A stretch of 64,000 nt of DNA from Mustelus asterias (taxonomy: Eukaryota): the NCBI RefSeq assembly GCF_964213995.1, contig NC_135805.1, forward strand, positions 36,766,001 through 36,830,000. The letters are read 5' to 3'. Of the stretch, positions 3,715-60,140 are shown one piece after another. The stretch's first letter is position 1. The number at the start of each line of letters is the position of its first letter. The notes beneath the pieces are model-generated. The model was not told the DNA's origin and did not search any database. It was given only the letters and a program-made list of their open reading frames with translations. The position numbers and the translations under genes are program-made.

Positions 3715-4347
3715 GATTTTGGGGAGATTGGAGGCAGTGCCAGGGACAGTGCCAGGGTACCAGGGGTGATGCCAGGGAGCAGGGGGCAGTGCCAGATGGG
3801 CCCCTGGAGACCTTCTTTGCTCTCCTTATCAGTTTCACCTTTTCAATTTCACCTTATCAGTTTGGGGATTGATTTCCCCTTGTGCATGTAGAGGGTGTTC
3901 CCTGTGCTCATGTGGAGGGGTGGGGAGGAGTGGATGGGTGGGGGGGTGAGGGGGGGAGGGGTGGTGGGGTGGGTGGGTGGGGGAGATTGAATTCCCTGTG
4001 CCTGTAGTGGTGGGGTGGGGGGGGGAAGGGTGTTGCTTCCTGTGTTGTATAGCAGAGAGGACTTCCAGTCCCAGCATGATGGCGTGGGCCATGCCTCCGG
4101 ATTTATTTTGCACAGAGTACTGCATTATCCAAAAGAGAAAAACAGGCTGTGCAGCCTGGCTTTCTCACCTCATGATGTGGAGATGCCGGCGTTGGACTGG
4201 GGTGAACACAGTAAGAAGGCTCACAACACCAGGTTAAAGTCCAACAGGTTTATTTGGTAGCAAATACCATAAGCTTTCGGAGCGCTGCTCCTTCGTCAGA
4301 TCTCACCTCAGCCAGCACTTTGTGCGGAGAATGGAAAATTCTGTCCA
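3715..4347. mobile_element. Degraded GC-rich non-autonomous DNA transposon (Harbinger-like, related to 20466-21664)
   Basis: ggcagtgccaggg repeats and G-rich tract; TIR-like end gaaaattctgtcc. Confidence 0.45.
4173..4300 (-). mobile_element. Penelope-like family A, 128-bp 3' terminal insertion with hammerhead core
   Basis: Minus strand reads CTGACGA-A-GGAGC-AGC-GCTCC-GAAA-GCTT-ATGG then the family tail ..gccggcatctccacatca; TSD tctcacctca at 4163-4172 and 4301-4310. Confidence 0.85.
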
Positions 4348-4363
4348 TTGAGTCTATTTGATG

Positions 4364-4638
4364 CAAAAACAGAACATGCTAGAAAATCTCAGCAGGTCTG
4401 ACAGCACCTGTGGGGAGAGAACACAGCCAACGTTTCGCGTCTAGACGACCCTTCGTCAGAGCTGATAGAGCCAATGTTTCGAGTCTAGATGACCCTTCAT
4501 CAAAGCATTTCGAGAATTTAGCATGACCATGAAACATTGGTTCTATTCTCCCAGATGCTGTCAGGCCTGCTGGGATTTTCCAGCATTTTCTGTTTTTGTT
4601 TCAGATTCCAGCATTTGCAGTATTTTGCTTTTATCTTA
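4364..4638. mobile_element. Penelope-like family B insertion with inverted termini and two tandem hammerhead motifs
   Basis: 4364-4506 (-) and 4531-4638 (+) are inverted copies of the family B end; 14-bp TSD gagtct(a/g)tttgatg at 4350-4363 and 4639-4652. Confidence 0.85.
4425..4463 (-). ncRNA. Minimal type-I hammerhead ribozyme motif (PLE family B)
   Basis: AGCU-CUGACGA-A-GGGUC-GUCUA-GACGC-GAAA-CGUU-GGCU; intact core, palindromic stem III ACGU, one stem II mismatch. Confidence 0.75.
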
Positions 4639-5337
4639 GAGTCTGTTTGATGTCTGTGCTGGCTGTTTGTGAGAACCATCCAAACCAAATTCCACTGACC
4701 TGCACTCTGCTCAAACCTCTGAAACTCCCTCTGCCTCTGAATCTTTTTTATTTTTAAAAGATGCAATGCCCACAGCCTCAACCATGTCCTTTGACAAAGC
4801 AGTCCATGTTCCAACTCTTCCTAACCTCTCTCTGTGTTTTCATGCAGACAATTATAAGTTAATGACTGTGCCCCCCCCCTCCCTGCTGACCATTTTATTA
4901 CTGGCACCTCAATCAAAGGAAATTGCGTTTCTCTCTAGTCGATAAAACCTTTTATTCCTTTTACAATCTTTATTAGATCTCCTTATAGCCTGGTCTCAGT
5001 GTAAATAGGTCCTGTATCTCAAGCCGCTCCCCATTGCTATTGTCTCCCATGTCTGGCATTACCGTAATGAAACTGTGCTATCTTCTTTTCATGGTTTTAA
5101 TGTACAATCGAAAAGGAACAGGCAATTAGCACTGAAGCCAACGGCACTTTGACAATATCAACAAGCCCTGTGCAGTGATACAAAGCACAGTTTTTGTAAG
5201 AAATGATCGCACAGTGTCTCCAGCAAATTATATCACGGGAACTGGCACAGGTGCATCACCCTTAGCTGTGCAGATAGATAGGTATTTTGTAGCCTCTAAA
5301 GCTTGCCAATGGCTACAAGGTCTTCCAGCACTGCTAT

Positions 5338-5640
5338 CACGGTGGCACAATGGTTAGCACTGCTGCCTCTCAGTGTCAGGGACCCAGGTTTGATTCCCGG
5401 CTTGGGTCACTGTCTGTGTGAAGTTTGCACGTTCTCCCCATGTCTGTGTGGGTTTCCTCTGGGTGCTCCCGTTTCCTTTCACAGTCCATAAGATGTGCTG
5501 GTTAGGTGTATTGGTCATGCTAAATTCTCCCTCAGTGTACCCGAACCAGTGCTAGAGTATGGCGACTAGGGGATTTTCACAGTAACTTCATTGCAGTGTT
5601 AATGGTAGACTACTGGTGACACTAATGAACAAACTTTAAA
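5338..5640 (+). mobile_element. HE1-type V-SINE with alternative (type 2) tail
   Basis: tRNA head plus V-domain, then ctcagtgtacccgaac..ggattttcacagtaacttcattgcagtgttaat..gtgacactaat. Confidence 0.85.
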
Positions 5641-6584: not shown

Positions 6585-6988
6585 GATGTGGAGATGCCGG
6601 CGTTGGACTGGGATAAACACAGTAAGAGTTTTAACAACACCAGTTTAAAGTCCAACAGGTTTACTTGATAGCAAATGCCATTAGCTTTCGGAGCGCTGTT
6701 CTTTCATCAGATGGAGTGGAAATCTACTCTCAAACAGGGCACAGAGACACAAAATCAAGTTACAGAATACTGATTAGAATGCGAATCTCTACAACCAAAC
6801 AGGTCTGGTTGGCTGAAGAGATTCGCATTCTAATCAATATTCTGTAACTTGATTTTGTGTCTCTTGCCCTGTTTGAGAGCACATTTCCACTCCATCTGAT
6901 GAAGGAGCAGCGCTCTGAAAGCTAATGGCATTTGCTACCAAATAAACCTGGTTGGACTTTAACCTGGTGTTGTTAAAACTCTTACTGT
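6585..6988. mobile_element. Penelope-like family A fold-back insertion
   Basis: Arms 6619-6802 and 6805-6988 are reverse complements; tail present only at the left end; TSD tatttttct(a/g)gatg at 6575-6588 and 6988-7001. Confidence 0.9.
6892..6928 (+). ncRNA. Minimal type-I hammerhead ribozyme motif (PLE family A)
   Basis: CCAU-CUGAUGA-A-GGAGC-AGC-GCUCU-GAAA-GCUA-AUGG; stem I CCAU/AUGG, predicted cleavage after CUA at 6924; mirror copy on - strand at 6678-6714. Confidence 0.8.
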
Positions 6989-20465: not shown

Positions 20466-21664
20466 GGGGGTGATTCTTCCAAAAATATTCTAAGTGCCGA
20501 ACTCACATGAGAACTGGAATATCTCCCGCTGATTTTTTTTTGGCGTGATTTTCAAAATGTATCCCACACTCTGAGCATTGCAGAGTGCCCCAGCGTGATT
20601 CACTCAGAAAGGTAGTGGGCGAGGCTTATTCCCACTGGAGAGGTCAGCATAGCACTGAGCGGGCCACTGCACATGCAGTGATATGTCAGAGCAGAGATCG
20701 GCGCATGCACACTGGCCCCGCACTGCCGACCTCCAGATAGCCAGCAATCGAGCTGGCTAACCCCACGACCTCGCAACGTTGCCTCTCCAATCCCCAACCA
20801 GAGATTGCTGGCCTCCCAGATCTCGATGTGGAAATGCCGGCGTTGGACTGGGGTAAACACAGTAAGGAGTCTAACAACACCAGGTTAAAGTCCAACAGGT
20901 TTATTTGGTAGCAAATGCCACTCGCTTTCGGAGCGCTGCTCCTTCGTCAGATGGAGTGGAAATCTGCTCTCAGATCTCTCCAGACCAGGCCCAATGTCCC
21001 CTCCCCCACCACCCCCCACCCAGTTCCGATCTCCCAGACCCACCTTTCCACCCAGATGGCCAGCCCTGATCACTCCCTTCCCTCCCTCTGCCATGGATCC
21101 CTATGCCAAGTGGCGGATCCCTCCACCCCCACTGATTGCATGCTATAGGCCCCACTTCCCACTAGGCCCTGCCTCCTCTGGCCCTTACCCCTTGGCACTG
21201 CCTGATGCCCAGTAGGCAGTACCAAGGTTCCCCTTGGTCATTGCCAGTTTGCCCCTTGGGCAGTGCCAAGGGGCCAGGCTAGCAATGCTCAGGGGGCACC
21301 CCTCCTGACTTCCTGGGGGGGCCCGATGGCCTCTGTTTTCTCCAGCATGGTGGGCCGCCCATTCCCCAGTAAGGAGAGCTGTTGTAAACCCCGCTGGAGG
21401 GAACCACTCCTGGAGGGAGGGGAGAGGCTAGCAGGCCCAGAGACTTCAGTCCCAGACCTGTTAATGAAATGGCAATGGCAGTTTAAATATTTAAATCAGC
21501 TCTGCACCGATTTGCAGCATGGAGCTGATTACTCCAAAATCTTGGAGCCGGAGACATGTGGAGGCAGTGGTGCCCAGCGGGGAACCTGCTAAATGGCTTC
21601 CACTGATGTCTCCAGGCCTGTTGCACTGCCAGAGCAGTGCAGTGGGCTGGGAGAATCGCCCCCC
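20466..21664. mobile_element. GC-rich non-autonomous DNA transposon (PIF/Harbinger-like)
   Basis: TIRs gggggtgattct / agaatcgccccc; colinear with 61726-62835. Confidence 0.75.
20825..20970 (-). mobile_element. Penelope-like family A terminal insertion with mutated hammerhead
   Basis: CCAU-CUGACGA-A-GGAGC..GCUCC-GAAAGCGA-GUGG (U16.1 changed to G); TSD cagatctc. Confidence 0.85.
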
Positions 21665-27208: not shown

Positions 27209-29690
27209 ATGTCCTATTTAAAAAGGAAAATTGTAAGTAAAGTGAGTGTTGGTCCCTTACAGAATGAGAATTGGGAATTAATAAAGGAAATAGCTGAAGC
27301 ATTGAACAGATATTTTTGTGCCTGTCTTCTCTGTGGAAGACACAAAATCATATCAAGAATGCTTGAAAATCAAGAGATAAGATAAAGTGAGGAACTCGAA
27401 ACAATCACAGTTGGAAGGGAAAAGTGAGAAAACTATTCGACCCCTGGACCTAATGGCTTTCATCCTAAAGTCTTAAAATAAGTGGCTGTGGAGATATAGA
27501 TGCATTGTTTGTGATTTTTCAAAATTCTCTAGAATGTAGAAAGGCCCCAATGAATTGAAAAATCGCTAATGCAACAATTTTGTTCAAGAAAGAAGGGAGA
27601 CGGAAAGGAGTAAACTATAGGCCAACTAGCCTAATGTCTGTCTGATGCGCATCAATTTGACACGAGGCACAAAGCTTTGGTAAAAGAAGGCTTTTATTAA
27701 CTAACAATGGAACTATCAGAACTTTAACACACTATCCCAGACTGAAGGGGTCCCGCCCGAGCAGGGAGTCTTATACCTCTCCCAGGAGGCGGAGCCCAAC
27801 TGGGATGTGCCACAACAGTTACAACCACAGGTGTATCAATCCCACCCTAGCCCAACAACAACATTAGAACAACCCAACAACAACATTAGAACAATCCCAC
27901 AGTGGGAACCAACGATGGTTCACCACACTGTCATAGGAAAAATAAACTAGAATCCATTATTCAGGAGGTAATAGCAGGATGTTTAGAAAATCACAATATA
28001 ATTAGACAGAGTGAACATGGTTGTAAGAGCGGGAAACCATGTTTGATACATTAATTCGAGTTACTCAAATTTATTGACTTTTTGTGACTTTAAAGGGGGG
28101 TCTTGACAAATACATGAATAGGATGGGAATAGAGGGATACGGTCCCCGGAAGGGGAGGGGGTTTTGGTTAAGTCAGGCAGCATGGTTGGTGCAGGCTTGG
28201 AGGGCTGAAGGGCCTGTTTCTATGTAATTTTCTTTGATCTTTATTGAGGCATATTTGGATTTCCTAAAGGCAATTGATCAGGGGCCACCTCAAAGGTTAC
28301 TATACAAAATAAGAACTCATAATGTAGGGGATAACATATTAACTCAAACAGAGCATTGGTTAGCTGAAAGGAAGCAGAGTGCAGGGATATATTAGTAATT
28401 TTTGGGTTGGCAACCTTTTCCTAGTAGAGTGCCACAGGGGCTCTGACTATTTACAAATCTATTCTATATCAATGACTTGGATGAAGGGATCAAATGAATT
28501 GGAACTAAATTTGCTGAAGGTACAAAGATAGGTGGGAAAGTAAATCTACAAGAGATATAAAGAATCCACAAAGGGGTATTGATAGGTTAGGTTAGTGGGC
28601 AAAATGTTGGCAGATGGGGAAAATGTGAACTTGTGAATTTGCTAAATGTGGGGAAATGTGAATTTGTCCACTCTAGATAGAAAAATAGAAAAGCAGTACA
28701 TTATTTGAATGGAGTGAGTCTGCAAAACTGTATGGTACAGAGGGATCTGGGTGTCCCAGTACATGAATCACAAAAAGCTGGTATGCAAGTGCAGCAGGTG
28801 ATTAGGAAGGCAAATGGATGGTAAGCATTTTTTGCAAGGGGGATTGAGTCTGAAAGTAGGGAAGCTCTAATCAATAGTTGGAGAATGAGATACACTCAGT
28901 GGACTTCTACGCTACCCACCTGGTCCTCCTCATAACCTGCCTGGTCCTCCTTGACTGCCTTATTGCAGAGTCTTCACCACCCTCCACCCCCCCCCCCCCC
29001 ACCCCCCCCCCCCCCAACCCTCCCGACCCCGGCACCCGACCACCTCCGCCACCGAACAGCTCTACAGGGCCTTGGACCTCATCTGGAATATTGTGTCCAG
29101 TTTGGTTTCCTTCCTTTGAGAAGTGATATAAATGCATTAGATACAGTTCAGAGAAGGTTCCCTCAACTGAATCCTTGCATGAAAGGCTTATCTTATGAGA
29201 AGAGGTTGAGCAGTTTGGGATAATGCCCATTTGACTTCAGAAGAGGTGCTCTTTTTGAAACATACAAGATTCTGAGGGGACTTGACGGTAGAAGCTGGAT
29301 GGATGTTTCCACTTTTGAGGGAGTCTAAATCTAAGGGATAAAGTTTAGAAATGAGAAGTCATCTATTTAAGACTAAAATAGAGGATTTTATTTATCTCCC
29401 AGGGAGATGATGGTCTGCAGGATTCTTTTCCCCAAAGTTCAGCGCAGCCTGGGTCATTGAATATACTGAAAGCTGAGTTAGACAGATTATTGATCAACAA
29501 GGGATTTGGGGGTTCTGACGGTGGTGGGGGGAGGCGGAATGGGGTGGGTCAGTGAATGGAGGGGGGAGCGGCTGCAGACAGGAAAGTGGTGTTGATCAAA
29601 ATCAGATCAGCCATGATCTTCTCGAATGATGGAGTAGACTCGATTGGATGGATGCCTGTTCCTTCTTCCATTTTTGTGTTCCTGTGTTTG
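27209..29690 (+). mobile_element. Old CR1 ORF2 remnant hosting several insertions (starts about 26130)
   Basis: PGPNGFHPKVLK, NYRPTSLMS, EHG, YLDF.KA, YINDLD, KFAEGTK. Confidence 0.8.
27643..27927 (-). mobile_element. Solo LTR, 285 bp
   Basis: TG..CA termini; 5-bp TSD ctgtc at 27638-27642 and 27928-27932; TATA-like and AATAAA motifs. Confidence 0.92.
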
Positions 29691-31842: not shown

Positions 31843-32586
31843 CAGTAAGAAGTTTAACAACACCAGGTTAAAGTCCAACAGGTTTATTTGGTAGCAAAAG
31901 CCACACAAGCTTTCGGAGCTCCAAGCCCCTTCTTCAGGTGAGTGGAAATTCTGTTCACAAACAGGGCATATAAAGACACAAACTCAATTTACATGAATAA
32001 TGGTTGGAATGCAAATACTTACAACTAATCAAGTCTTTAAGAAACAAAACAACGTGAGTGGAGAGAGCATCAAGACAGGCTAAAAAGATGTGTATTGTCT
32101 CCAGACAAGACAGCCAGTGAAACTCTGCAGGTCTAGGCAACTGTGGGGGTTACAAATAGTGTGACATGAACCCAATATCCCGGTTGAGGCCGTCCTCGTG
32201 TGTGCGGAACATGGCTATCAGTTTCTGCTCAGCGACTCTGCGCCGTCGTGTGTCGCAAAGGCCGCCTTGGAGAACGCTTACCCGAATATCAGAGGCCGAA
32301 TGCCCGTGACCGCTGAAGTGCTCCCCAACAGGAAGAGAACAGTCTTGCCTGGTGATTGTCGAGCGGTGTTCATTCATCCATTGTCGTAGCGTCTGCATGG
32401 TTTCCCCAATGTATCATGCCTTGGGACATCCTTTCCTGCAGCGTATCAGGTAGACAACGTTGGCCAAGTTGCAAGAGTATGTACCGTGTACCTGGTGGAT
32501 GGTGTTCTCACGTGAGATGATGGCATCTGTGTCGATGATCCGGCATGTCTGTTTACCCCAGTCCAACGCCGGCATCTCCACATCAT
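31843..32586 (-). mobile_element. Penelope-like family A element: GIY-YIG endonuclease remnant, 3' UTR with hammerhead, inverted tail
   Basis: Minus frame 32150-32549: YSCNLANVVYLIRCRKGCPKA*YIGETMQTLRQWMNEH..PVGEHF..AEQKLI..GLN; TSD-like tctattct(t/c)tctc. Confidence 0.9.
31902..31942 (-). ncRNA. Minimal hammerhead ribozyme motif, intact core
   Basis: CAC-CUGAAGA-A-GGGGC-UUGGA-GCUCC-GAAA-GCUU-GUG. Confidence 0.8.
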
Positions 32587-32673
32587 GTCTATTCTCTCTC
32601 CACAGATGCTGTCAGACCTGCTGAGATTTTCCAGCAGTTTCCGTTTTTATTTCCAATTCCAGCATCTGCAGTA

Positions 32674-33015
32674 TCATAGAATCATAGAAACCCTACAGTG
32701 CAGAAGGAGGCCATTTGGCCCATCGAGCCTGCACCGACCACAACCCCACCCAGGCCCTACCCCCACATATTTTTACCCACTAATCCCTCTAACCTACGCA
32801 TCTCAGGACTCTAAGGGGCAATTTTTAACCTGGCCAATCAACCTAACCCGCACATCTTTGGACTGTGGGAGGAAACCGGAGCACCCGGAGGAAATCCACG
32901 CAGACACGAGGAGAATGTGCAAACTCCACACAGACAGTGACCCGAGCCGGGAATCGAACCCAGGACCATGGAGCTGTGAAGCAGCAGTGCTAACCACTGT
33001 GCTACCATGCCGCCC
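32674..33015 (-). mobile_element. Young HE1 V-SINE
   Basis: Full head to tail; cagta TSD; very similar to 23420-23775. Confidence 0.92.
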
Positions 33016-33883
33016 AGTAATTTGCTTTTACCATAGATTTAGGAACTGTGCCTTTGGATTGGAAAACTCTGCATGTCACTCCATTGTTTATAAAAATAGG
33101 ATTTGAGAACCGAGATGACTGCAGAAAACTTATCAATTGTGGGGAATTTATTGAGCAAGAGAGACAGCGCTCAGGATGTTGCGCTCGCGTTCATCACAGG
33201 CACAAATGACGACGTGAGAGCAAAATCCTGAAAGAGGCCAAAAGCGAGATTCTCACCAGTGAGATCTTGTGATCATTCCCACAACCTGCCATTGACGTAA
33301 CAATCTTCCCATGTGTTTTATTTTTTAATTAAAATCTAATGCAGTAATGGAAGAAAATATGGAAGACAATTCTTTGGTAAAATTGATTCAAAACTATGCA
33401 ATATTCTTTAAAATTAGCTATGGGCATTTAGTTTAGCTTATGTGGAAATAATATATTAATTAATTTAATATAAAGCATGTAACTGGAAAGTACGATTAAT
33501 ATTTTATATTGGCTAAATGTTAGTTCAAATACAACATAGTGAATGTTTAAACTTTGATAAGTCTCTCGTGCGATAATCCACTATCTTACTGTGAATTGTG
33601 TGAATATGTGCTGTATTAAAATGAGAAATATTAAGATGTTTCTCACAAAAGAGCAGACTGCATAGATGAAAAGGTTGAGCACTTGACTCCCATCGAGAAG
33701 GTTGTACATTAAAGTCCCTAGACAGTTGCTGCTCAAATAACACCTCCGCCAGGTTTGACAGATGCAGTGCCACTTGGAAACAAGACGTTGGAGCACTGAA
33801 TCACCCACTTAAATCACATTTCCTGTCATCAAAGAATGACATCAATGCTAGCTACAGAGGAATACACCATGCCCAGGCCAACC

Positions 33884-38924: not shown

Positions 38925-39228
38925 TATTTATTAGTCACAAGTATGCTTACAGTAACACTGCAGTGAAGTTACTATGAAAATCCCTGAGTCGCCACACTCC
39001 GGCGCCTGTTCGGGTACACAGAGGGAGAATTTAGCACGGCCAATCCACCTAACCAGCACGACCTTTGGACTGTGGGAGGAAACCGGAACACCTGGAGGAA
39101 ACCCATGCAAAAATGGGGAGAATGTGCAGACTCCACACAGACTGTGCCCCAAGCCAGGAATTGAACCTGGGTCCCTGGCGCTGTGGGGAGCAGTGCCGTG
39201 AGACAACACTGTGCCACCATGCCACCCC
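38925..39228 (-). mobile_element. V-SINE with type 2 tail
   Basis: Reverse complement of the 33884-type copy. Confidence 0.88.
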
Positions 39229-39249: not shown

Positions 39250-39321
39250 AGGGGGCACTTGGATTTGAGCCAGCGACCTCTTGATCTGCAGTCAAATGCT
39301 CTACCACTGTGCTATAACCCC
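39250..39321 (-). pseudogene. tRNA-Cys(GCA) pseudogene
   Basis: GGGGTTATAGCACAGTGGTAGAGCATTTGACTGCAGATCAAGAGGTCGCTGGCTCAAATCCAAGTGCCCCCT, 72 nt; intact anticodon arm, mismatches in acceptor, D and T stems, B-box GTTC changed to GCTC. Confidence 0.88.
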
Positions 39322-41292: not shown

Positions 41293-42355
41293 TATCTACT
41301 CTACATCGGAGAGACCAAACACAGACTGGGTGATCGCTTTGCTGAACATCTTCGATCTGTCCGCAAGCAGGACCCAGGCCTTCCTGTCGCTTGCCACTTC
41401 ACCACACCACCCTGCTCTCCTGTCCACATGTCCATCCTTTGCCTTTTGCAATGTTCTAGCGAACCCCAATGCAAACTAGAGGAACAGCATCTCATCTTCC
41501 GATTGGGCACTTTACAGCCTTCCAGACTGAACCTTGAGTTCAACAACTTTAGAGGGTGTGGTGAACCATCGTTGGTTCCCACTGTGGGATTGTTCTAATG
41601 TTGTTGTTGGGTTGTTCTAATGTTGTTGTTGGGCTAGGGTGGGATTGATACACCTGTGGTTGTAACTGTTGTGGCACATCCCAGTTGGGCTCCGCCTCCT
41701 GGGAGAGGTATAAGACCCCCTGCTCGGGCGGGACCCCTTCAGTCTGGGATAGTGTGTTAAAGTTCTGATAGTTCCATTGTTAGTTAATAAAAGCCTTCTT
41801 TTACCGAAGCTTTGTGCCTCGTGTCCAATTGATGCGCATCAGAGGGTGAACTCTCCCCTCCACCTCCACCCCATTCCCAATTATTTTATTTTATTTCATC
41901 TCATTCATCCATTTTATCATCTTTCTTTTTCACTTCTATTTTCTGACTTCTCCATTCCAGCTCTGCTTCTTTCCACATCCCCCCCTGCCCCCCTCCATCC
42001 CCCCCCTCCGCCCCCCCCCCCCCCCAAACACCCTTCATTGCAACCGCCATATTCCTCTGGCAGTTCTTTACCAGTCTACCTCTGTGCTGCCATTCTTGCA
42101 CATTCTGATCACTTAATGGACCCTCTTAACACCTTCTCAGCCTTCTGTATTCTCATTTATATTACCTTTGTCCAATTCCATCCCCCCCCCCCCCCCCCCC
42201 CACCCCCCCTCCACCCCAGTAGTATAAATCTCTGCTGATTCTCATGCTCTTAGTTCTGGCGAAGGGTCATCTGGACTCAAAACTTTGGCTCTACTCTCTC
42301 CCCACAGATGCTGTCAGACCTGCTGAGATTTTCCAATATTTTCTGTTTTTGTTGT
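41293..42355 (+). mobile_element. Penelope-like family B element: GIY-YIG C-terminus, 3' UTR, degenerate hammerhead; interrupted by an LTR
   Basis: LYIGETKHRLGDRFAEH..PVACHF..KLEEQHLIFRLGTLQPSRLNLEF; ctggcgaagggtcatctggactcaaaact at about 42256; TSD atttatatc. Confidence 0.9.
41557..41841 (+). mobile_element. Solo LTR, 285 bp
   Basis: TG..CA; TSD gaggg at 41552-41556 and 41842-41846; near-identical to 27643-27927. Confidence 0.93.
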
Positions 42356-59909: not shown

Positions 59910-60140
59910 ATAAAAGCAAAATACTGCGGATGCTGGAATCTGAAACAAAAACAGAAAATGCTGGAAATTCTCAGCAGGTCAGACAGCATCTGTGGGGAGA
60001 GAATAGAGCCAATGTTTCGAGTCTGGATGACCCTTTGTCAGAGCTGAGAGCAAAGAGAATCAGCAGAGATTTATACTATGAGGATGAGGGGAGAGGTGGA
60101 ATGGAACAAAAGGAATGTAAATGAGGATACGGAAGGCTGA
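59910..60140 (-). mobile_element. Penelope-like family B 3' end with mutated hammerhead
   Basis: Minus strand: agctCTGACAAagggtcatccagactcGAAAcattggct plus family tail. Confidence 0.82.

Follow-up and report, generated by a model that had tools for sequence, protein, structure and literature searches.

An old Penelope-like element insertion with two hammerhead ribozymes stacked 44 nt apart, probably left by a single re-priming event

The window, that is, the whole stretch of 64,000 nucleotides analysed here (Mustelus asterias, NCBI RefSeq assembly GCF_964213995.1, contig NC_135805.1, positions 36,766,001 to 36,830,000 of the forward strand), contains an insertion of Penelope-like element (PLE) pLTR sequence in which two hammerhead ribozymes lie in tandem. 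Coordinates refer to the window, and the parts of the insertion, together with the candidate donor of a short SINE fragment, are as follows.

4350-4652: insertion together with the 14-nt TSD copies at both of its edges
4350-4363: left TSD, 13/14 identity with 4639-4652
4364-4428, minus strand: left, tail-less pLTR copy, 3' part; its end at 4364 is the family's internal end site and a putative internal start of reverse transcription
4425-4464, minus strand: HH2, with C3 at 4459, a predicted cut between 4429 and 4428, and an intact conserved core
4465-4506, minus strand: HH1, the duplicate, with U3 at 4503, A16.2 at 4475 and a predicted cut between 4473 and 4472
4429-4472, minus strand: hypothetical 44-nt product of double cleavage, based on geometry
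4506-4514, minus strand: third hammerhead fragment, 9 nt, spanning from where stem II ends to 16.2, at the second go-back junction
4512-4529, minus strand: captured SINE fragment, 18 nt, matching the reverse complement of 5512-5529 at 18/18 (E=0.001)
4531-4634, plus strand: pLTR copy in inverted orientation, with the GAAA box at its start, 88% match to the copy 59910-60018
4599-4634, plus strand: 36-nt tail, on the right arm; the left arm has no tail
4635-4638: four extra bases between tail and TSD
4639-4652: right TSD; this junction is also found in organisms B and C
5512-5529, plus strand: candidate donor of the SINE fragment, inside SINE 5335-5640

The insertion is built of two pLTR arms in inverted orientation, with 4356-4422 and 4540-4606 being 82% complementary, and the 3' ends of both arms face outward, as would be expected if each target strand had primed one cDNA. 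The initial annotation had described an inverted, tail-bearing copy after the tandem, and this was borne out by the right arm and its tail. It had also placed the unit inside a single 14-bp TSD; the duplication was found, but its two copies match at 13 positions and not at all 14. Of 5,000 pairs drawn at random from the window, 18 reached 13/14. The right arm is without the 5' half of the hammerhead, the GAAA box being its first element, and carries a 5-nt deletion near 4546. On the left, nearly the same end as 4364 (within about 2 nt) recurs in three other copies in the window. Among the contigs placed on 4305-4784, loose ends accumulate at 4633-4635, where the tail ends. Loose ends at 4364 were considered as proof of a family end site and were rejected, since tailed copies also depart from the reference there.

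Within the insertion, a direct repeat of 38 nt (4425-4462 and 4469-4506, minus strand) shows 87% identity (33/38) at a spacing of 44 nt, whereas the best 38-nt match in 200 shuffles reached 26 at most. This confirmed the two head-to-tail, minus-strand hammerheads 44 nt apart that had been reported from the initial reading. Both substitutions described for the upstream unit, C3U at 4503 and G16.2A at 4475, were likewise present, and stem I of HH1 is shortened to 3 pairs. The core of the downstream unit had been called intact. This holds, HH2 being the only one of six copies in the window with an intact core, but its stem II contains a G.G mismatch at 10.2-11.2 (4438), where 95.5% of the family depth has the pairing letter.

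Of about 41 homologous positions, HH1 and HH2 have different letters at 7. Both have the same loop II state, which occurs in none of the four other copies in the window, and this points to one common template; most differences between the units therefore probably arose after insertion, as first proposed. That dating does not extend to G16.2A taken alone, because this CpG change is a common variant in the family, making up 21-32% of the family depth in all four runs and also occurring in the inverted arm. The hammerhead letters of orthologues are swamped by family copies at 80% likeness. HH2 retains five CpGs (4433-4459, minus strand), which, like its intact core, speaks against pure decay. Four changes are private to it; each adds a G on the sense strand, and together they create a 10-nt perfect palindrome over loop II. 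At the Rfam gathering thresholds, no hammerhead was detected in the window; the one match was tRNA-like (39250-39321, minus strand, 43 bits) and adjoins the SINE copy 38934-39196.

The copy turns back twice, and the two junctions differ. Beyond HH2, copying starts again at a point 8 nt on the 3' side of the cut site. Beyond HH1, the new start lies 2 nt on the 5' side, 13 nt short of a repeated 44-nt unit, and SINE sequence follows. The fragment at 4506-4514, absent like the SINE piece from the initial annotation, agrees with HH2 (4431-4439) in 8 of 9 letters, the exception being a private change of HH2, and such a short match may be due to chance. The overlap at both go-back junctions is only 0-1 nt, a point against the re-priming reading, and the SINE fragment is joined via a 3-nt GAG overlap. 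Long microhomology at the tandem junction was rejected because of this 0-1 nt overlap, and cleavage-ligation was rejected as the source of the junctions because neither lies at a cut site. Two differing junctions, neither at a cut site, fit run-off and re-priming of the reverse transcriptase (RT), not the copying of a 44-nt circle. Among seven SINE copies within 3 mismatches of the captured fragment, only the nearest matches exactly, so that DNA repair may have contributed a step.

The same family is represented elsewhere in the window, most informatively by the following features.

41296-42353, plus strand: family copy with upstream endonuclease fragment, TATA box at 42223 and tail-less end
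41296-41562, plus strand: GIY-YIG endonuclease C-terminal fragment, about 660 nt upstream of the family pLTR
59910-60075, minus strand: reference family copy, with a TATA box 30 nt above stem I, a hammerhead and the tail

Eight further pieces of the family were found in the window, four of them with a whole hammerhead, and these four have neither an intact core nor a tandem. No other tandem was found in the window. Copies of the family end at two sites 36 nt apart, the internal one being used in four window copies (left arm included) and the distal one in two (right arm included), plus one tailed copy that is probably interrupted. In that copy, at 32588-33037, about 340 nt including a SINE apparently interrupt the tail. 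Three window copies retain upstream sequence, and all three have a TATA box (31763, 42223 on the plus strand and 60075 on the minus strand) 29-30 nt above the A in stem I. The starts of HH1, of HH2 and of an independent copy (42678) fall within 3 nt of this A, and what precedes them is unrelated sequence; the present insertion itself has no TATA region. On the simplest reading, transcripts of the family are predicted to start at the stem I A, where the RT would run off, and a mini-element transcript of roughly 100-140 nt beginning at the ribozyme is suggested. In the published descriptions, rotifer pLTRs carry a putative TATA box plus initiator (PMC3846280), and the promoter of Penelope in D. 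virilis is internal and TATA-less (PMC2377424).

A second family of minimal hammerheads, with another stem III palindrome, is also present (4160-4303 on the minus strand, 6640-6960, 20880-20970 and 31844-31960). Among its copies, one stops about 60 nt short of the insertion on its left side, another makes up an inverted pair, and a third was inserted immediately behind a hammerhead of the present family at 31843.

The endonuclease fragment at 41296-41562 gave no Pfam match itself. Among 33 candidates, 19 homologues of it were found, the named ones coming from rays and sharks. When five homologues were scanned, all matched GIY-YIG (one above the Pfam cut-off) and three matched RVT_1. Moreover, five of six aligned homologues have a CxxC linker between RT and endonuclease; a Zn-finger-like CxxC linker is described as a feature of Neptune, shared with Nematis (PMC8557442). 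Adjacency and orientation, over about 660 nt, thus appear to link the family to autonomous PLEs with RT and GIY-YIG, and the family probably belongs to the Neptune clade. The present insertion contains no ORF sequence. The interval between the GIY-YIG fragment and the pLTR is interrupted by one member of a 288-nt inverted pair (41556-41843 and 27641-27928; identity 99%), an insertion or duplication of young age.

Contigs of 4 of the 21 runs were placed on 4305-4784 at 80% likeness, with 51,082, 10,449, 42,632 and 39,245 contig records per run; the family is therefore very abundant in three organisms. The age of the insertion follows from its right junction, which is present in two other organisms. 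A contig of organism B (4605-4782) runs from the tail into the right flank with 5 differences in 178 (2.8%), and a contig of organism C (4609-4784) does so with 14 differences and 3 gaps in 176 (8%), the latter having 30 letters on the element side, one below the bridging rule. Thus, the insertion is old.

The depth over the SINE piece was 20.7, 4.9 and 3.1 in runs X1, X4 and X8, compared with 14.6, 5.5 and 2.0 over the unique flank, and the family bins reached 10^3-10^6; depth is not copy number, but the SINE piece falls below the family bins by several orders of magnitude. Depth at the centre of the insertion is like that of a single copy. Run X3 had almost no depth over 4513-4528, with five empty bins. 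Among the listed pieces of the four runs, none combining tail and tandem was longer than about 103 nt, where 143 nt would be possible from a copy having both; this is a weak negative, because the tandem of the locus itself is likewise unspanned among the listed pieces, and 147,601 pieces and 846 joints lie outside the listing. The tandem pattern had no match in metagenome contigs, a zero that carries no weight, as the family is absent there: the monomer pattern was found at 12 loci, none of the present family, one of the 12 having a 32-nt match at the hammerhead level only, and no match was found in viral contigs. Two of the metagenome loci (L006 and L008) each contain an inverted pair of minimal hammerheads from unrelated PLE families.

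The cleavage potential of the tandem was evaluated by folding. The cis double hammerhead is fully nested in the predicted fold: the 3' stem I strand of HH1 pairs with the 5' strand of HH2, with the linker closing a loop of 5 nt, and a stem III of 4 bp is formed between the two palindromes. With harmonised units, the double fold lies 10.3 kcal/mol above the ensemble, compared with 19.4 kcal/mol for a control with 101-nt spacing, and with the present sequence it lies 16.0 kcal/mol above; these are Turner energies only, exclusive of core contacts, and are meaningful relative to each other. The proposed geometry, in which double cleavage would release a 44-nt piece (4472 to 4429), is thus feasible as a model. 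The objection that the linker is too short failed against the same control and was rejected, the 44-nt spacing favouring the double fold.

Both catalytic centres are damaged. Centre A, formed by the core of HH2 and the site of HH1, has a C.A mismatch in stem III next to A15.1-U16.1 and the G.G mismatch in stem II, and centre B has U3 opposite G8 and the 3-bp stem I. A lone C3U change would strongly slow hammerhead cleavage; in the hammerhead literature searched, no direct measurement of it was found. For the anole PLE hammerhead, a single C3G or G8C change is reported to abolish cleavage (PMC11167929), natural cores usually covary to U3-A8 (PMC3088659), and PMC7151607 mentions a U3/G8 variant that occurs naturally and carries an insertion, so that C3U may retain some activity. 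Since the insertion has no TATA region, any RNA from it would be a read-through product that includes the inverted arm. In an RNA of the whole insertion, the double fold lies 28.5 (present sequence) or 23.0 (harmonised) kcal/mol above the ensemble, and the predicted ensemble has the GAAA, stem III and cut-site region paired to the inverted arm, either in HH1 (0.41) or in HH2 (0.48). The arm would therefore mask the hammerheads in read-through RNA, and from these models we infer that the present tandem is inactive.

The locus is probably best explained by a single, old retrotransposition of a non-autonomous PLE pLTR RNA, during which the RT re-primed, leaving a dead-end fossil. The template would have been the pLTR RNA of a non-autonomous Penelope-like element, probably of the Neptune type. 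Both nicked target strands, 14 nt apart, would have primed reverse transcription and so produced the outward arms and the TSD, the left arm being primed at the internal start site (hence tail-less) and the right arm at the distal site (hence tailed). The left cDNA would have run off the template's 5' end at stem I of the hammerhead, and re-priming 44 nt back would have copied the hammerhead a second time. A second run-off at the same place would have been followed by further re-priming for 9 nt, after which the cDNA would have gained 18 nt of SINE and been joined to the second cDNA; the SINE piece marks this patchwork junction. The 44-nt tandem would then have the geometry of a double hammerhead by chance, in a setting with no promoter of its own, a long hairpin and decay. 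Such steps have precedents in the published accounts: the anole PLE nicks and extends both strands, and its reverse transcription starts at two sites bounding the tail (PMC11167929), while R2 is known to add non-templated bases on run-off and to jump between templates (PMC2718515), steps that the RT of the present family may share.

A DNA-level origin, in which slippage or end-joining with templated insertions duplicated the 44 nt and copied 18 nt from a SINE about 1 kb away, would lead to the same inert fossil. The captured piece being exact only to the nearest of seven SINE copies, and the rare loop II state being common to both units as a local duplication would give, speak for it. However, both endpoints lie on the recurrent 5' end of the family, where a slip would have no reason to land twice, and the divergence of the units (7 of about 41) resembles that of the arms (82%), which fits a duplication at the time of insertion. 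We consider this origin unlikely. An assembly artefact, with the tandem or junction coming from mis-joined repeat copies, would agree with the tandem being unspanned among the listed contigs, but the units differ at 7 positions, the TSD frames the whole, and the SINE-piece bin is at single-copy-like depth in three organisms. In addition, two runs contain 0.71 of the words, though these may be from the source sample. Such an artefact is hardly credible.

The reading in which the tandem belongs to, or was produced by, a minimal 44-nt retrozyme, which would be cleaved in cis, circularised and re-integrated by the PLE enzyme, draws on the feasible nested fold, modelled as better than that of the 101-nt control, on a survey that traces animal retrozymes to PLE pLTRs and gives family units of 51 bp or more (bioRxiv 10.64898/2026.07.22.740005), and on the weak cleavage of minimal hammerheads as dimers (PMC4209133). 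A fixed circle, however, would repeat one junction, and the second junction here is 13 nt short and enters the SINE; the centre of the insertion is single-copy-like in depth, and no longer tandem occurs among the listed pieces. The same survey describes eight of nine natural vertebrate retrozyme dimers as not cleaving in vitro, and the anole PLE hammerhead needs protein to cleave and is dispensable for insertion (PMC11167929). The likeness to a minimal retrozyme unit drawn in the initial annotation is thus not upheld, in view of the differing junctions, the single-copy-like centre, the lack of a promoter, the damage to both centres and the competing inverted arm, and a retrozyme origin appears very unlikely. 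Retention of the tandem as a cis-acting host ribozyme that cuts a read-through transcript would suit an old insertion present in at least two other organisms and the intact core of HH2, one of six in the window. Each of the two centres, however, draws on both units, both are damaged, and the inverted arm would pair with the GAAA, stem III and cut-site region, which leaves this role with a minimal likelihood.

Under the preferred re-priming explanation, the locus as it stands carries little weight, since it is a single decayed copy and its family runs to tens of thousands of contigs per genome. It shows that PLE integration is able to stack two ribozymes in working geometry. That re-priming from the transcript end at stem I routinely seeds short double hammerheads is improbable in our assessment. 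If it did, re-primed pLTR transcripts would keep yielding cis double hammerheads of ~44 nt, and part of these would be cleaved and closed into circles. The locus would then record, as a fossil, how PLEs give birth to retrozymes, its unit being below the 51-bp minimum of the survey, and cartilaginous-fish genomes would contain further units of this kind. If short tandems recur and cleave, they would mark out a concrete path by which PLE pLTRs become retrozymes and would supply a candidate RNA circle that is very small and processes itself.

Published PLE insertions are described with partial tandems, an adjacent inverted and 5'-truncated copy, a one-sided tail of 30-40 nt and TSDs of 8-10 bp (PMC8557442, PMC3846280). 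The present locus resembles the reported insertions of endonuclease-positive PLEs (PMC8557442, PMC3846280, PMC11167929) in its partial tandem, inverted 5'-truncated copy and TSD, in its tail at one end (36 nt here), in the minimal hammerhead of its pLTR, and in its relatives with RT and C-terminal GIY-YIG. Unlike them, it has no ORF, its tandem has a period of 44 nt in which the ribozyme alone is repeated, and it holds a SINE scrap at the inversion.

The pLTR hammerhead agrees with the consensus line in the supplement of PMC4209133. It shares with the minimal type I hammerheads of metazoan PLEs, as described there, CUGANGA plus an extra base, G10.1-C11.1, a 5-bp stem II, the palindromic 15.2-16.2, a 4-bp stem I and the dependence on dimers (PMC4209133). 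Such hammerheads are thought to act as dimers, and engineered dimers and trimers are reported to cleave weakly (PMC4209133, PMC6765202, PMC6155905). In contrast to the natural pairs published in PMC4209133, which are spaced about 3 kb from each other in tandem or 100-700 bp on opposite strands, the present pair is 44 nt apart on one strand, and both of its centres are damaged. In the literature searched, no report of a 44-nt PLE hammerhead tandem was found; the searches were not by that length, and short units may be listed in the supplements of the 2026 survey.

Metazoan retrozymes are described with units of 170-400 nt and expressed circles (PMC7229834). In the 2026 survey, retrozymes derive from pLTRs and have units of 51-972 bp, cleavage is given for one of nine dimers, and its one cartilaginous fish has a mean unit of 363 bp (bioRxiv 10.64898/2026.07.22.740005). 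[quoted passage not shown] Unlike metazoan non-LTR retrozymes, the locus has a 44-nt period, two units only and one broken core. It is like them in its head-to-tail type I hammerheads derived from a pLTR, its long TSD and its dimeric cleavage geometry. The locus is a PLE insertion that has the build of a retrozyme dimer yet falls short of two complete hammerheads.
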